From Candidatus Eiseniibacteriota bacterium (GTDB lineage: Bacteria; Eisenbacteria; RBG-16-71-46), in assembly GCA_963776245.1 (NCBI GenBank), contig CAVZLN010000003.1, positions 64,001 through 128,000 of the forward strand: a DNA stretch of 64,000 nt. Reading direction: 5' to 3'. The position numbers are program-made. Each line of letters starts with the position of its first letter. The first letter of the stretch is position 1. This document shows, piece by piece, positions 57,701 through 63,700 of this stretch.

Positions 57701-60700
57701 CGGCTGATGAAGCGCTATCCGACCTGGAGCCACCCCGAGCTCGTGATGCGCATCCGACTGGTGGACCCGGAGCAATTCTAGGCGCCGCCGGAGCGCCCCG
57801 CTCGCGGCGCCGGCGCCGACCGCGCGGCCCGCGCTAGCGCGTGATCGGCCGCGGAGACCACGGCTTTACCCGGGCCCCGCTCCACGCGGCGCAGACGCCA
57901 TCCACCGGCGCGTGGAGTCCGACGAAGCGCTCGCCGCGGGTCACGGTGGGCTCGTAGGCCAGGCTCCACGCCAGCGTCCCGGTGACCCACTCGACGCACA
58001 GCGGCTGCGCACACGCCGCGTCCCGCGGTGGCGGACGGTGCACCAGCACCGTCGCGAGCACGTACGTCTGGCCCGCCCGCACCGGCGTCGCCGCGGTGCT
58101 CGCCACCGCGAAGATCATCCGCAGCCGTGCCCCGCCCGGGACCAGGTCGCTCTTCTGGAGCCCGATCCCGGGGACCGGGAACGGGGTCGCCGCGCCCGCC
58201 ATGGAGTCCGGCGCGAAACGCGCCACGAATTGCCTGAGGTCGCCACCGCGCTGGGTCGCGCGCCAGTAGTCCGCGAGCGAGTCGGGCGCGGTCGGGCGGA
58301 ATCGCAGCTCGGCTTCGAACGCGTAGAGCGTGGGGGAATCCTGGCCCGGCACCATGCACAGGTAGAGCGTGTCGGTGGCGGCGGTGTCGCCGCACGCGCC
58401 CAGCAGTGAAGCGGTGGCGCGCGGTTGTCCCGGGGGCGCGTTCCACGACAGCGTCACGCGCGCGCCAGTGGTGTCGGGTCCCGCGCTGGCGCGTGCCACG
58501 GCGGCGCCCGCGATCAACATGGCGAAGACGAGGGCGGCCGCCTTAGCGGCCCGAACGGGCATGCAATAGGGTTCCGTCATCGGTAGAGCACCTTGATCCG
58601 TCCCCAACTGGAGGGCCGGGCCGGGACCGTGAGACAGTCCGCGCCCACACCGCCCTGCCAGGTCGCGAAATTCTCGTGGGCGCCGCCGTCCCCCGAGATC
58701 AGCACGTCGGCGGCGCCGGGCAGGCGCCGCAGCCACATCGAATTCAGCACCAGGCATGCTGGAACCTCGCAATCCGCGCAGTTCCCCATCCGAGCGATGC
58801 CGAGATCGAATTGTATCGCATTGTAGGGAATTCCGGCTTCGAACGCACGCGCTTGCGTCGAGGCCACGGTCGCGACCGCACGGATGCGCAGCATGGAGGC
58901 GAGTCCGCGCGGCTGCCCCGGGATGGCATCCACGATGATGGCGCTCCCCAGACCGTTCCATGCATCCGCGCATGCTCCCGGCGCCGGGAAGGACGGCACC
59001 AGGCCGCCTTGGTTGCACCCGCCGGCGCCCAGTTGCCAGAAGGCCGGCAACGGCGACGCCGCGCTCTGCAGATCGAGCACGAATTCGGCGCCGATCACGC
59101 TGTCGATCGGCGCCGCGAGCTGGAACGAGCACACCAGGTAGCGGTGCGCCGATATGTCCGCGCATCCCTGCACCGCGTCCGCCGTGCCGCCCTCGACGCG
59201 GCATCCGTCCCAGGCCAGCATCAGGCGGTCGGCGGCGCGCGCACTCGCGCAGGTGCCGCACCCGACCGCCAGCGCCAGCACCCATGTCACTCCGACACCA
59301 CGAGGCACCCACGCGCGAGCGGGGTGCCTCGTGGATGCCGAATGCGGCTTCGACACTAGCGGTAGAGGCTCTTGATCTGACCCCAGGTCCGGCTGCGCAC
59401 CGGAACCGTGGCGCAATCCGCCACGGTCTGGCCCGAGAGGAGTGCACTACCGGCGGACGCCGGGAGGTTGTACACCGGGTCGCCCCCAGGACTACCGGAC
59501 GGCTGGTTGAGCTTGACCCACTTGAGCATCATGCACGCCTGCGCGTCGCAGCCCGCGCAGGAACCCGTGCCGGTGCTCTTGGTCTTGTTCATCACCAGCG
59601 AGTAGAGGAAGATCTCGTCGCCCACGTTCGGGGGCGGGGTGAGCAGCGCGAGGTCGTAATCCACGGCCGAGACGAAGCGCATGCGGACGCGGTTGCCGTC
59701 GATCTCGCCATTCGGGTCGCCGATCGCGGGATCCGGGCCGATCTGGTAGGAGTTGACACCCAGCACCGTGCTGACGCCGCCGAAGTAGTCGATGCACGAG
59801 TACAGGCCGCCGTTGTACCCCACGGCCAGCGCGTTGGAGGCGCGGCAGGTCCCGCCCAACTTCCACCATTCGGGCACCAGGGTCGCGAACGCGAACTCGA
59901 CCATGCTTTCCTCGGCCACCAGCGTGGTGAGCGAACCCGCAGCATTGATCACCACGGACGCGACGGCGGTGAAGGCGGCGCCGCCGTTGGACGTGCAGGT
60001 CCAGGTCGCGAGTTGGGCGCCACCGCAATCGGTGGAGGCCAGCTTCAAGCCCGGAACGTCCACCGCCTGCGCCGGCGACACCATCGAGATGCTCGCCAGC
60101 ATGCTACCGAAGACCACCAACACGAGAAGCAGTCGCTTCATGATTCGGACCTCCCTTTCCCTAGAGTGACGGCATTCGGCACGAGCGCACCCGGCCGGAG
60201 AGATGGATGCTCACGCCGAGGTTGACCGCGAGGCTCTTGCCCGGTCCATGGATCGCGGCTGCATCCTAGCGTGTCATCGGCCGGGCGCAAGCGATAATCC
60301 AGTCGCCCGTGGGGGCGGCGCCAGCGGCCACAAGCGAAGCGGGGGGGCCGGCGACCGCCGCCCCCCCGAACGCGTTCGTTGCAGAGACTTGACAGCGACC
60401 TACCGGTACAGCGACTTGATCTGGCCCCAGCTGCTGCGGGTCGCAGGAGTGGACAGCGGGCAAGTCGGATCGATCGAACCGTTGAAGCACGTGTAACCGA
60501 CGTCGTTCACGTCGGGAAGGCCCATCACCGGGTCACCACCAGGAGTGCCCGACGGCTGGTTGAGCTTGACGTTCCTGAGCACCATCGCGACCTTGGCGTT
60601 GCAGCCCGCGCAGGCACCAACGCCGGCGCTCTTGGTCTTGTTCATCACCAGCGAGTACAGGAAGATCTCGTCGCCCATGGCCGGCGGCGGCGTGAGGAGC

Positions 60701-63700
60701 GCGAGGTCGTAATCCACGGCCGAGACGAAGCGCATACGGACACGCTTGTCGTCGATCGGGCCGTTCGGGTCGCCGACTCCGGGATCCGGGCCGATCTGGT
60801 ACGAGTTGACTCCCAGCACCGTGCTGACACCGCCGAAGTAGTCGATGCACGAGTACAGGCCACCGTTATACCCCACGGCCAGCGCGTTGGCGGCGCGGCA
60901 GCCACCGCCCAGCTTCCACCAGTCGGGCACCGGAACCTCGAACCCGATCTCGACCACACTCTCCTCGGCCACCAGCGTCACGACGCCAGCCGGAACGGTC
61001 GCCGAAGCGATCACCGTGAAGGCAGCGCCGCCGTTGGACGTGCAGGTCCAACTGAGCGTCGAGGCACCGCCGCAATCACCGACGGAAAGGTGGAGCCGCG
61101 ACTGAGCGTTGGCAATCGCCGCCGTCATCACGAGAAGGGCGCCACAGAAAAGGAAAACCTTCTTCATTGGAACCTCCAGAATACGCAAGACTAGACAGGG
61201 GGACGATGCGCTACCGAGTTGCTCGATCGGTCTAGTCTCGATATCACCACCTTTCGATTCGATTCCTACATTCGAAGCAAGCGAGAAGCGGCTCTAGAAA
61301 TCCCCGATCAAGGGCAGCCCGTATCGGTCGCGCTGGTCGAGCAGCCGCTAGCACAACCCAAGTAGGCAGACCCCAGATCGACAGGTCGGTGCCGGCGATC
61401 TCGCCCGAGAAGTCAAAGTCCGAACGGCCAGCGAACGGGGCGGGCGACGGGCCCTTGCGATTGAAATAGTCGGACGAGTAGAGCCCCAGGTCGAGGCCGT
61501 CGTACCCCAGCAGGCCGCTGAGGTCATACGAGGCGACCGTGTAGTTTCCGAAATCCACGCCATCCACCGTCATGTGGCAGCACAGGCCGCCCGTGATCGC
61601 CCCCGACGAAGTGGACCCGCCGAGGATGCGGAACGTCGCGAGGCCACCGGCGTCCGTCAGCGCGCTGACCTGCCCGGAGGACACGTCGTCGTCAGCCCGG
61701 GCCACGGCTGCGGATTCGCGATCCAGATGTCCGGCGCGCACGCCGAGAAGTCGAGCACGACGTTCGCGCCCCACACCGGGTTGCCGCCGATGTCGCGCAC
61801 GGTCACGGTGAACTGACTGCGGCTATCTACGCCGAGGGCCGTGCCCTGGCTGCTGAGCGCACCGAGGAAGGGCGCGGGGAGGCCGGGAGTATTGGCGCCC
61901 AGCTTGATGCCCAGCGGCTTGGTGGAAGTCGAGGAATTCGGCACGCTCGCCAGTCGCCGCCCCGGCGACGAGCAGGCCGCACACCGAGAGAAGCGTGGCC
62001 TTGCGAATCAAACCAGTCATTGTTGCACCTCCATAAGATGGTCACCCGGTTGCTAAAGAGAAGGCAAGGCTCAGCTGCAAGCAATCAGGTCTGGCTTCGA
62101 GCCACCTCCTTTCGAATCCTTACTTCCATTCCAAGAAAGACTTGTCGCCGCGAGGCGAAGATATCTGACGCTTTGGCAAGACGTTCCGCGACGTAAGAAA
62201 GTCTAGGAGTCACGTCCACGGCGTGTCAAGTGGGTTTTTCGCGTCAAGCTCCTCTGTGCCTCGTGGTTGGCCGGCACCCCCCCGGCCCGGGCTTTCTCCC
62301 CGGCCGGCGGGCCTGCGACCGACCCCGGGCCAATCTGCCCGGAGCGCTGATCCACGGTGGTGGGCGAAACAGGGTTCGAACCTGTGACCCCTTGCTTGTA
62401 AGGCAAGTGCTCTGACCAGCTGAGCTATTCGCCCGCAGCCTCGGTCTTCCCGCGGACCAGGAGCGAGGCCGGGACGAGCACCACGTACCCGAGCACCAGG
62501 AGGATGGGGGCGGCAGTGATATCCCCCTTGGAAAGCAGGACATAGCCCACGGCCAGGACGGCGATCCCGATCCCCAGCAGGAGGGTGTTCAGCCCCCCCC
62601 AGCGGAATCCCGGGTCCACGGCGACCACCGGCTTCCTGACGTTCCGCGACCTCGTGACGCTGGGCTTGTTGGCGCTCATCTCGACTGCTCCCTGGCTTCC
62701 CGAATGGGAAAAGCCGACGGTTACGGGCTGGGCGAGCCAGTCCGAGACCGTCGGCTGTCCGGGGCGAGAGGCCCGGGGCACGAACGATCTCAGCGAGGAT
62801 CGCTTTGGGTGCCGCCGCCTCCGTGGGGCGTGCGTCTTCTACCCCAATCGGAGGCCGCGGGGTTCCCGCTTTCTCAGGCGGGCGGCTCGCCGCCCAGGTT
62901 ACGCCCCGGAAGGGGGTTCAGGCTGCCCGATCGGAACCCCTCCAGGTCCAGCGTGACGACGGTGAATCCCGCCCGCTTCAGCGCCTCGATCGCGCGCTCG
63001 CGCACCGGGCGCTCGAGCAGCCGCGGCAGGTCGGCGAGCGGGACCTCGATGCGCGCGGTGTCGCCGAAGTGGCGCACCCGGCATTCGCGGAAACCCAGCG
63101 CGTGCAGCGCCTGCTCGCCCGCCTCCACCATGGCCAGGCCCTCGGACGTGATCGCGGTGCCATGCGGGATCCGCGAGGCGAGGCAGGGCGAGGCCGGCTT
63201 GTCGTGGCTCGCGAGCCCGAAGTGCCGCGCCACGGCGCGCACCTCGGCCTTGGTGAACCCCAGTTCGGCCAGCGGCGAGCGCACCGCGCGCTCGGCCGCC
63301 GCGTGGCGGCCCGGACGGTAGTCGCGCGCGTCGTCGGCGATGGTGCCGTCGAGCACCGCGGCCGCGCCGTGGCGCGCGCGCACCTCGCCGAGGCGGCGGA
63401 ACAGCTCGTTCTTGCAGTGATAGCAGCGGTTCACGGGATTGCTCGCGAACGCCGGGTCGCTCAACTCGCCGGTGGTCACGATCTCCACCGCCGCGCCGAA
63501 CGAGGCGGCCTGCGTGAGGGCCGCCTCCAGTTCGCGCCGGGCGTAGGAGTCGGAACGCCCGATCACGCCCACCGCGCGGCCTCCGAGCACCTCGTGCGCC
63601 ACGCGCAGGAGCACGCTCGAGTCCACGCCGCCCGAATAGGCCACCACGCACGAGCCCAGCTCGTGCAGCACGTGACGCAAGCGCGCCAAGCTTCTCGGGC

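Follow-up and report, generated by a model that had tools for sequence, protein, structure and literature searches.

A short, strictly C-terminal tail on unrelated exported proteins of an Eisenbacteria genome, a candidate sorting signal

Genes of the window that encode the tail

The window analysed here is a stretch of 64,000 nucleotides, beginning at contig position 64001, from a Candidatus Eiseniibacteriota genome of 3.56 Mb (G000). ORF translation places three tandem genes on its minus strand (span 58577-61188), and their products end in SSWGRIKVLYR, RTWGQIKSLYR and SSWGQIKSLYR, each followed directly by a stop codon; the longest minus-strand ORFs with these ends are 58577..59416, 59356..60141 and 60400..61188, respectively. 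T08 (g00137; 60400..61167, minus strand) has 255 aa when read from the ATG at 61167, begins MKKVFLF... and ends in TCPLSTPATRSSWGQIKSLYR-stop. T09 (g00136; 59356..60141, minus strand) has 261 aa, with the signal peptide MKRLLLVLVVFGSMLASISMVSPAQA, a predicted beta-sandwich at residues 30-226, a disordered tail at 228-261 and the C-terminus ADCATVPVRSRTWGQIKSLYR-stop. T12 (g00135; 58577..59356, minus strand) starts at a GTG sharing one base with the stop codon of the gene upstream, which gives about 259 aa, and its C-terminus is ADCLTVPARPSSWGRIKVLYR-stop. A preliminary description of this locus had both of its boundaries right, the end at 61167 being the ATG of the third tandem gene. The 17 codons of the tail, which we call the tag, lie on the minus strand at 58580..58630 in T12 (TVPARPSSWGRIKVLYR), 59359..59409 in T09 (TVPVRSRTWGQIKSLYR) and 60403..60453 in T08 (STPATRSSWGQIKSLYR).

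A fourth tag protein of the window, T11 (42756..43562, minus strand; 268 aa, C-terminus ACETVPARLPSWGRVKTLYR-stop), is a paralogue of the tandem trio. Directly downstream of it lies a gene for a multi-pass membrane protein that carries a TPR region at its C-terminus (40672..42942, minus strand). The window also encodes a second PorU-like C25 peptidase (50058..54290, minus strand; 1410 aa, Propeptide_C25, Peptidase_C25 and a FlgD_ig-type CTD) and a PorV/UPF0164-like outer-membrane barrel (18786..19811, minus strand), one of 8 to 12 paralogues per genome.

Position, carriers and distribution of the tag

The tag is a C-terminal tail of about 17 residues that ends in T-W-G-x-I-K-x-L-Y-R and then the stop, or in its fuller form [T/V]-P-x-[R or E]-x-x-[S/T]-W-G-x-[I/V/L]-K-x-[L/I/M]-[Y/F]-R-COOH. 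When the regular expression of the preliminary description was run on all six frames of G000 (28,077 stop-to-stop segments, each 60 aa or longer), 24 matches lay exactly at the stop, one had a single trailing residue and none lay deeper inside any reading frame; the shared motif that never occurs internally is thus real. A looser expression matched 27 segments, and the tag proteins analysed here (the T-series) are the 26 among the matches listed; relaxing W, G, K, Y/F or R singly gained no match or one. In this genome K, G and the terminal R are each constant (24 of 24), and W occurs 24 times beside one F. The DNA form of the motif gave 25 matches and the reversed-pattern control none, and an additional tag, ...ATWGRVKTLYR-stop, stands in a shifted frame of an LTD-like gene (G000:C3:~149100). 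Profile searches with the 26 tag proteins found no entry for the tag in Pfam or in NCBIfam release 20.

The carriers had been described as all having a signal peptide and mutually unrelated mature domains. Their unrelatedness is confirmed, since the 26 proteins of G000 form 18 BLAST groups after removal of the last 20 residues, and 97 tag proteins pooled from four genomes fall into 48 such groups. Signal-peptide-like N-termini are frequent and fall short of universal: 23 of the 26 pass a hydrophobic-window test, T25 lies narrowly below its threshold yet looks like a signal peptide, and T19 (77 aa) and T24 (start unresolved) fail. Over the four genomes an N-terminal hydrophobic stretch is present in 85 of 97 tag proteins, compared with 274 of 633 neighbouring genes. 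The domain labels assigned earlier to the carriers, Phosphoesterase, NHL, CBM96/DNRLRE and choice-of-anchor E and P, were all recovered, NHL in a ScyF-like form, with DUF4114 in addition. Tag proteins are small, with a median of 262 aa against 733 aa for CTD proteins. The search with T09 covers 31 proteins, counting the query itself, a paralogue from the window and 29 further homologues; all of them keep TWG[QSA][IV]K.LY[R/H], down to 27% identity, and the tag is better conserved than the protein that carries it. The tail behaves like a portable module that stands strictly at the C-terminus of exported proteins with no other relationship.

AF2 models of two unrelated families end their domain 18-35 residues ahead of the stop. 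In T09 the pLDDT is 77 overall and below 50 in the tail (228-261); in a choice-of-anchor E protein it is 87.5, the domain stops at residue 214 and the tag scores about 55. As modelled, the tail is a free, disordered appendage outside two unrelated folds.

The motif is present in 142 of 151 genomes of the phylum, in up to 65 copies, and the reversed control gives 0 or 1 matches. It reaches beyond Eisenbacteria, the phylum to which the signal had been assigned: three tag-rich MAGs labelled Latescibacteria, Fibrobacteraceae and Gemmatimonadota hold 28 to 46 copies each. Every tag carrier is a MAG.

Comparison with known C-terminal signals

LPXTG, PEP-CTERM, GlyGly-CTERM and the T9SS CTD are C-terminal sorting signals each of which led to a machine. 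The tag would be the shortest such signal so far; it has neither helix nor fold, and it stands on dozens of proteins per genome, in phyla that only metagenomes have revealed. Like PEP-CTERM (PF07589, TIGR02595), it occurs on many unrelated secreted proteins per genome, including "choice-of-anchor" families, and at the same position after the same domain. Among a choice-of-anchor E query and its 48 homologues, the conserved ...VTYxY end is followed by the tag in 9 strict and 6 near variants, and by a PEP-CTERM-like tail in 21 cases by rule and about 5 more by eye. In these homologues the tag holds the exact place of PEP-CTERM and substitutes for a known signal. The two are nevertheless distinct, as had been claimed, since none of the tag sequences of G000 has a PEP motif, a hydrophobic transmembrane helix or a basic (Arg) cluster, and the homologues in which these features occur look clearly different; exosortase-type intramembrane cleavage is implausible because the tag lacks a helix, and a crude regular expression finds about one PEP-CTERM-like protein in the genome.

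This replacement also bears on the idea that the tail is recognised by a periplasmic protease or processing enzyme, for example a tail-specific protease with a PDZ domain, and so controls turnover or maturation and not location. PDZ domains read C-terminal, unstructured features with a free carboxylate, which the tail has; PDZ proteases typically favour non-polar C-termini, however, and here the terminus is Arg. A degron on 25 to 65 constitutive secreted proteins per genome would have no obvious rationale, and replacement by PEP-CTERM in homologues argues for anchoring. We regard a protease tag as improbable.

The beta-signal of outer-membrane proteins, read by BamA, is likewise a short conserved extreme C-terminus of exported proteins, but it has an aromatic last residue and belongs to a beta-barrel, whereas the tag ends in Arg (24 of 24 in G000) on carriers that are soluble beta-sandwiches or NHL propellers by model or domain. 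The eukaryotic PTS1 (...SKL-COOH), read by the TPR domain of PEX5, is similarly very short and strictly C-terminal, with a free carboxylate, folded unrelated cargo and a single receptor (for the tag a single reader is our proposal). It differs in its domain of life and its compartment, and the one TPR protein encoded next to tag genes was discarded as a candidate for a general reader. The beta-signal consensus is described as species-specific in part of PMC1634882, and species-specificity of the consensus is a further point that the tag shares with it.

A further close comparison is with the type A CTD of the T9SS (TIGR04183/PF18962 and its FlgD_ig-like form). In FCB bacteria that have a T9SS, both form the very C-terminus of proteins exported by Sec, have a basic last residue and a conserved basic residue near the end, and follow a coil linker, and the tag co-occurs with SprA, PorU and PorV. 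When checked against the CTD motifs, the tag has the conserved basic residue of motif E (Lys, or Arg in genome G140) and lacks both the GxY of motif D and motif B. It also differs in sitting on smaller carriers and in being 17 conserved residues without a fold, where a CTD is a beta-sandwich or a sheet of at least three strands of 40-100 residues; no folded C-terminal domain of that size is seen in the AF2 models of two tag families, and conservation of the tag covers only about 17 residues. None of the 26 tag proteins matches the CTD profiles PF18962, PF13860 and TIGR04183 in Pfam and NCBIfam searches, and an HMM built from 20 CTDs of G000 (--max, E<=100) yielded no alignment that reached the tag or HMM positions 76-85. 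At the level of sequence comparison, then, the tag is no detectable remnant of this genome's CTD.

Earlier, the tag had been set apart from the T9SS CTD. The lack of similarity to the G000 CTD model up to E<=100 upholds that separation, but independence from the T9SS does not follow, with SprA present nearly everywhere the tag is. Within the phylum, SprA turned up in 147 of 151 genomes; of the 142 tag-positive ones, 139 have it, and the remaining three are incomplete (82-92%). All three tag-rich MAGs with other phylum labels (G151, G153, G154) have SprA as well. Since the T9SS is nearly universal, and all nine zero-tag genomes also carry SprA, this co-occurrence does not discriminate for T9SS dependence. 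G000 encodes 72 CTD proteins and carries porU and porV in one operon; 7 of the 72 CTD genes lie within 5 kb of a tag gene against 4.6 expected (P=0.19, no enrichment). In addition, the genome encodes secretins of the type IV pilus/T2SS class at two loci, and another outer-membrane route besides the T9SS may therefore serve the tag.

As precedents for the T9SS route, parts of PMC11969387 describe short CTDs of 40-55 aa in Prevotella intermedia and secretion of GFP by the last 22 residues of Hbp35, indicate that T9SS signals tolerate strong shortening, and give Lys or Arg in motif E as absolutely conserved. According to sections of PMC10994853, one conserved CTD Lys touches PorV loops, and the folded domain of a canonical CTD has a buried area of about 1,850 square angstroms. 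Such an interface is beyond the reach of a peptide of 10-17 residues, which counts against the tag as a T9SS signal. Part of PMC12618676 describes distinct signals served by distinct barrel shuttles.

Genome-specific variation and the proposed reader

The core of the tag is constant, and its upstream half shifts genome by genome, in concert across unrelated proteins. At position -13 G000 has 10 basic, 2 acidic and 9 other residues, whereas G153 has 11 acidic, 3 basic and 3 other and G154 has 28 acidic, 2 basic and 7 other. The charge pattern persists when each BLAST group is given one vote, and one and the same family adopts the version of its own genome. Such concerted variation fits one trans-acting reader per genome.

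We infer, with a probability of roughly 60%, that the tail serves as a short linear signal for sorting or anchoring, read by one trans-acting envelope component per genome and most likely acting through the T9SS. A carrier would be exported by Sec and would fold once in the periplasm, where a Cys just ahead of the tail would often form a disulfide. About 17 free, unstructured residues and the terminal carboxylate would thereby be offered to the envelope component, which would set the final place of the protein by outer-membrane crossing or by retention on the outer membrane. On the T9SS route, the most likely one, the tail would add a third, domain-less kind to the T9SS signals, with either a PorV-family shuttle or the translocon as its reader. 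Bearing on novelty, the portable terminal module on exported proteins, the missing Pfam or NCBIfam entry and the PEP-CTERM position all support the earlier proposal of a new C-terminal signal, and its sorting function is the probable part. More tentatively, the tag could form a new class of outer-envelope sorting signal (about 17 residues, domain-less) with its own dedicated reader, either as a third, minimal T9SS signal or as a separate pathway, on 20-65 proteins per genome in several uncultured FCB phyla, and co-evolving with that reader (charge flip at -13, Lys/Arg at -5). If the tag is an address label, the surface or secreted proteome could be predicted from sequence alone, a very small portable tag would be available, and the label would point to an unrecognised reader, for which the genome-specific upstream half offers a concrete handle in a search by covariation.

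The drift of the upstream half is equally compatible with a single binding partner, as would be expected if small secreted proteins took another export route and were then docked non-covalently by the tail onto a surface scaffold or one another, much as dockerin pairs with cohesin. The small size of tag proteins agrees with such docking, as does the largest tag family of G000 (6 of 26), which models as a beta-sandwich with cohesin modules as its best, weak PDB matches (E 1.4e-3, TM 0.3-0.5). That match is below significance, however; the full-length T09 model shows the tail not bound to its own domain, no recurrent scaffold gene lies beside tag genes in four genomes, and the replacement by PEP-CTERM favours a sorting role, so that docking appears unlikely.

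About equally unlikely is that the tail, as an amphipathic basic peptide, needs no protein reader and binds directly to membrane, lipopolysaccharide or peptidoglycan, in a way similar to the amphipathic C-termini that anchor some penicillin-binding proteins. It does combine W, I/V/L, L and Y with K and R. For the tag of the choice-of-anchor E family AF2 predicts a short helix at low confidence, and the hydrophobic moment calculated for a strand is 0.65, where shuffled sequences have 0.42 +/- 0.22. The helical moment, in contrast, is no better than that of shuffled order (0.48 against 0.42 +/- 0.20), W, G, K and the terminal R are invariant in G000, and the upstream spacing is fixed. A charge reversal at -13 by genome across unrelated proteins is hard to square with generic lipid binding, and that nothing is allowed after R better fits a reader of the free C-terminus.

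For the sorting reading that we prefer, four classes of candidate reader were tried and none held. The membrane-TPR protein (40672..42942) was rejected as a general reader; a tag gene lies beside its orthologue, too, in 4 of 29 loci of other genomes. The second C25 peptidase (50058..54290), put forward previously by analogy with PorU, is not specific to tag-bearing genomes in its distribution, and PorV-like barrels, with their 8 to 12 paralogues, also occur in zero-tag genomes. Nor did four genomes show a recurrent neighbour of tag genes that could be a gene-linked reader.

Finally, position -5 speaks to a covalent link of the tail to peptidoglycan or another polymer through the invariant Lys as nucleophile. 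The analogy would be with Braun's lipoprotein, its C-terminal ...YRK and L,D-transpeptidases; K-x-L-Y-R loosely resembles ...K-Y-R-K, and Lys stands at -5 in 24 of 24 tags of G000. In the G140 lineage, however, Arg occupies -5 in 33 tags against Lys in 65, and two tags each in G117 and G154 also have Arg. Because Arg is unfit as that nucleophile, its replacement of Lys largely refutes covalent linkage, which we consider very improbable; acceptance of Arg indicates that the position needs a positive charge or a hydrogen-bond donor, and not an amine.

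A motif confined to the C-terminus

The preliminary description held that a set of secreted proteins of this Eisenbacteria genome (G000) ends in one motif placed directly before the stop codon, and that observation is confirmed. We translated the 3.56-Mb genome in six frames and searched its 28,077 stop-to-stop segments, each 60 amino acids or longer, with W[GSA].[ILVM]K..[YF][RK]: 24 segments end exactly in the motif, one has a single residue after it and none has the motif deeper inside. Loosening each conserved position singly brought 0 or 1 extra match. One further tag (ATWGRVKTLYR-stop) lies outside the window, at G000:C3:149000-149400, in a shifted frame of an LTD-like secreted gene; the gene body is in another frame, with a frameshift or assembly error about 25 codons ahead of the stop.

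Of the 151 genomes sampled from the phylum, 142 contain the DNA form of the motif, with a maximum of 65 copies, and a reversed-pattern control gave 0 or 1 matches; nine genomes have no tag, and members of family f7 have only 0 to 5 each (the 151-genome tallies take in the unpublished genome G015). The LTD-like secreted protein is the one tag protein that this low-tag family retains in 5 genomes. A scan of one genome per species found at least 123 stretches with the tag, all from MAGs. Among the 80 of these 123 that were listed, a hand count gave 32 Eisenbacteria-type, 4 Krumholzibacteria-type, 4 Latescibacteria-type, 2 Gemmatimonadota, 2 Fibrobacteraceae, 1 Gammaproteobacteria and 1 Limnocylindria labels, and 34 without a phylum label; the genomes behind three of the other labels contain 28, 28 and 46 tags. 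No model in Pfam or NCBIfam release 20 matches the tail, and as far as the terms searched reach we found no description of it in the literature.

In the window, which is G000:C3:64001-128000, three tandem proteins had been reported to share the same type of tail; this is borne out, and the start and end coordinates then assigned to the array are correct. T12 (58577-59356/59416), the middle gene T09 (59356-60141) and T08 (60400-61167/61188) are co-directional on the minus strand and end in SSWGRIKVLYR, RTWGQIKSLYR and SSWGQIKSLYR, respectively, each with the stop directly after; the stop of T09 overlaps a possible GTG start of T12 by one base. A fourth paralogue, T11 (42756-43562), has the same tail. 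The same two genes lie ahead of this array and of a second tandem array of tag genes, on contig C2 (window 61200-62781; G000:C2:6602-9716), so that the locus looks duplicated. One of the two encodes a small membrane protein with two helices (window 62425-62781; C2:6602-6847) and the other a secreted protein of about 200 amino acids. The window copy of the latter gene is broken between frames -2 and -3, for which tblastn gives 38% and 36% identity, respectively.

A portable tail with a genome-specific half

The carriers of the tail are diverse. With the last 20 residues removed, the 26 listed tag proteins of G000 fall into 18 BLAST-unrelated groups, and named domains among them are Phosphoesterase, NHL/ScyF-like, CBM96/DNRLRE, DUF4114 and choice-of-anchor E and P; 23 of the 26 pass a simple hydrophobicity test for a signal-peptide-like N-terminus. 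In four genomes, 97 tag proteins form 48 groups, and an N-terminal hydrophobic stretch is present in 85 of the 97 versus 274 of 633 neighbouring genes. Their median length is 262 amino acids, compared with 733 for the 72 proteins of G000 that have a T9SS C-terminal domain (CTD).

The proteins listed in a search with T09 number 31: T09 itself, its paralogue in the window and 29 more, with identity down to 27%. Every one of them ends in TWG[QSA][IV]K.LY plus a last residue, which is R in 29 and H in 2. An AF2 model of T09 built with this alignment has a confident beta-sandwich at residues 30-226 and an unstructured tail at 228-261 (pLDDT below 50); Foldseek gave weak matches only, the best to cohesin modules (E 1.4e-3, TM 0.3-0.5). 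The family has eight conserved Cys, one of them 18 residues from the C-terminal end, which suggests that the protein folds in the periplasm with disulfide bonds and leaves its tail free. In a model of a choice-of-anchor E carrier that is unrelated to T09 (pLDDT 87.5), the domain stops at residue 214 and the tag is modelled, with low confidence, as an appendage (pLDDT about 55). Since the tail is unstructured in the models of two unrelated carriers, it is predicted to be a module outside the carrier's fold.

Counting from the C-terminus, the tags of G000 have T or V at -16, P at -15 in 19 of 25, often R at -13, and T or S at -10 in 25 of 25, followed by W, G, x, I/V/L, K, x, L/I, Y/F and R. The last ten residues are constant across genomes and the upstream half differs genome by genome. 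Position -13 is basic in 10, acidic in 2 and otherwise in 9 tags of G000; the corresponding numbers in three tag-rich MAGs with other phylum labels are 7, 3 and 12 (G151), 3, 11 and 3 (G153) and 2, 28 and 7 (G154). Further features of the G154 tags are V at -14 in 27 of 37 and P at -12 in 20 of 37. The pattern at -13 holds when each BLAST group is given one vote, and members of one family carry their own genome's version of the upstream half. A single trans-acting reader in each genome, that is, a component recognising the tag, would produce such concerted change in unrelated proteins.

All tags of G000 have Lys at -5. In G140 (family f8), Arg stands there in 33 tags versus Lys in 65, giving W-G-x-[IVL]-R-x-x-[YF]-R beside the Lys form. 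Four other tag-rich genomes have 2 (G117), 2 (G154), 0 (G083) and 0 (G112) such tags. Because Arg replaces Lys in G140, the position requires a basic side chain rather than an amine, and chemistry specific to Lys is rejected. An amphipathic helix is also rejected, as the hydrophobic moment of the tail is no better than that of shuffled order. Rare core variants occur among homologues in public collections (SLYH for SLYR in 2 of 31; W-S-R-I-K for W-G in 3 of 49), as do tails without the last residue (GLF, SLY), the records of which may be truncated.

Exchange with PEP-CTERM and possible relation to T9SS

In the choice-of-anchor E set (the query and 48 homologues), a conserved VTYxY end is followed at the same place either by the tag (9 strict and 6 near variants such as W-S-R-I-K) or by a PEP-CTERM-like tail (21 by rule and about 5 by eye). 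A crude regular expression picks out about one PEP-CTERM-like protein in G000. New in this analysis are the PEP-CTERM substitution, the disordered state of the tail in two folds, the upstream half that differs between genomes, the Lys/Arg result and the rejection of four kinds of candidate reader. As had been proposed, the best reading of the tail is a new sorting or anchoring tag, since it is portable, terminal and found in the position of PEP-CTERM; its function, route and reader are inferred.

One plausible but unproven form of this reading is a minimal T9SS signal. According to PMC11969387, T9SS signals can shrink to 40-55 residues, 22 residues of Hbp35 are enough for GFP secretion, and a Lys or Arg is absolutely conserved in motif E; PMC10994853 gives one conserved Lys as the sole conserved contact with PorV, and PMC12618676 assigns different signals to different barrel shuttles. 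These features make the idea plausible. The CTD is also described as binding as a folded domain with about 1,850 square angstroms buried (PMC10994853). The tag has no similarity to G000's own CTD model, and the enrichment of CTD genes near tag genes is not significant. The T9SS core protein SprA is present in 147 of the 151 phylum genomes and in all three tag-rich MAGs with other phylum labels; T9SS is thus compatible with the tag yet non-discriminating, because all nine genomes without tags also have SprA. Nor can T9SS be arrived at by elimination: two secretin loci, of the type IV pilus/T2SS class, exist in G000.

Candidate readers

We rejected four kinds of candidate reader because of their distribution or a lack of linkage. 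In G000 there is a porU-porV operon together with two more C25 peptidases and several PorV-like barrels. A C25 peptidase had been put forward as a candidate for the machine, and this did not hold: the second C25 peptidase (window 50058-54290) has full-length homologues at 29-31% identity in zero-tag genomes (G036, G101, G022) and homologues at the same level in the distant, tag-rich G140 and G129. The PorV-like barrel at window 18786-19811 has 7 to 12 matches in each of 10 genomes searched, including zero-tag ones. PorV orthologues are only 40% identical in G151 and G153, with none in G154 at E<=1e-40, and are too diverged for charge covariation to be read.

A membrane-plus-TPR protein (window 40672-42942) and its paralogue each adjoin a tag gene in G000. 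Its family is found in just 103 of 151 genomes. Tag-rich genomes including G001, G014 and G016 gave no match at E<=1e-10; the family is present in 32 of 32 genomes of low-tag f7, and zero-tag G017 has 10 matches. An orthologue adjoins a tag gene in 4 of 29 loci of other genomes. The adjacency is local synteny only. Finally, when the 708 genes within 6 kb of the 97 tag genes of four genomes were clustered, the recurrent neighbours were just response regulators, Ser/Thr kinases, ABC ATPases and large CTD proteins (5-7 loci each). Genomes of f7 keep the LTD-like tag protein after an ABC-transporter operon, plus a family of 210-240 amino acids, and neither has a reader-like neighbour there.

A T11-family tag gene lies directly upstream of the multi-pass membrane/TPR gene in the window (40672-43562) and at loci L021, L022, L024 and L037 of other genomes. 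The TPR region of the multi-pass protein looks periplasmic and the protein is GT-C-like by eye; the T11-family protein may be its specific partner or substrate. Elsewhere in the window, two large paralogues of 1056 and 670 amino acids (15551-18721 and 22694-24706) stand on either side of a TonB-receptor-like barrel and a PorV-like barrel. Neither matches Pfam, and the two have another C-terminus in common, GKFLIVKSDRE[G/S]F-stop.
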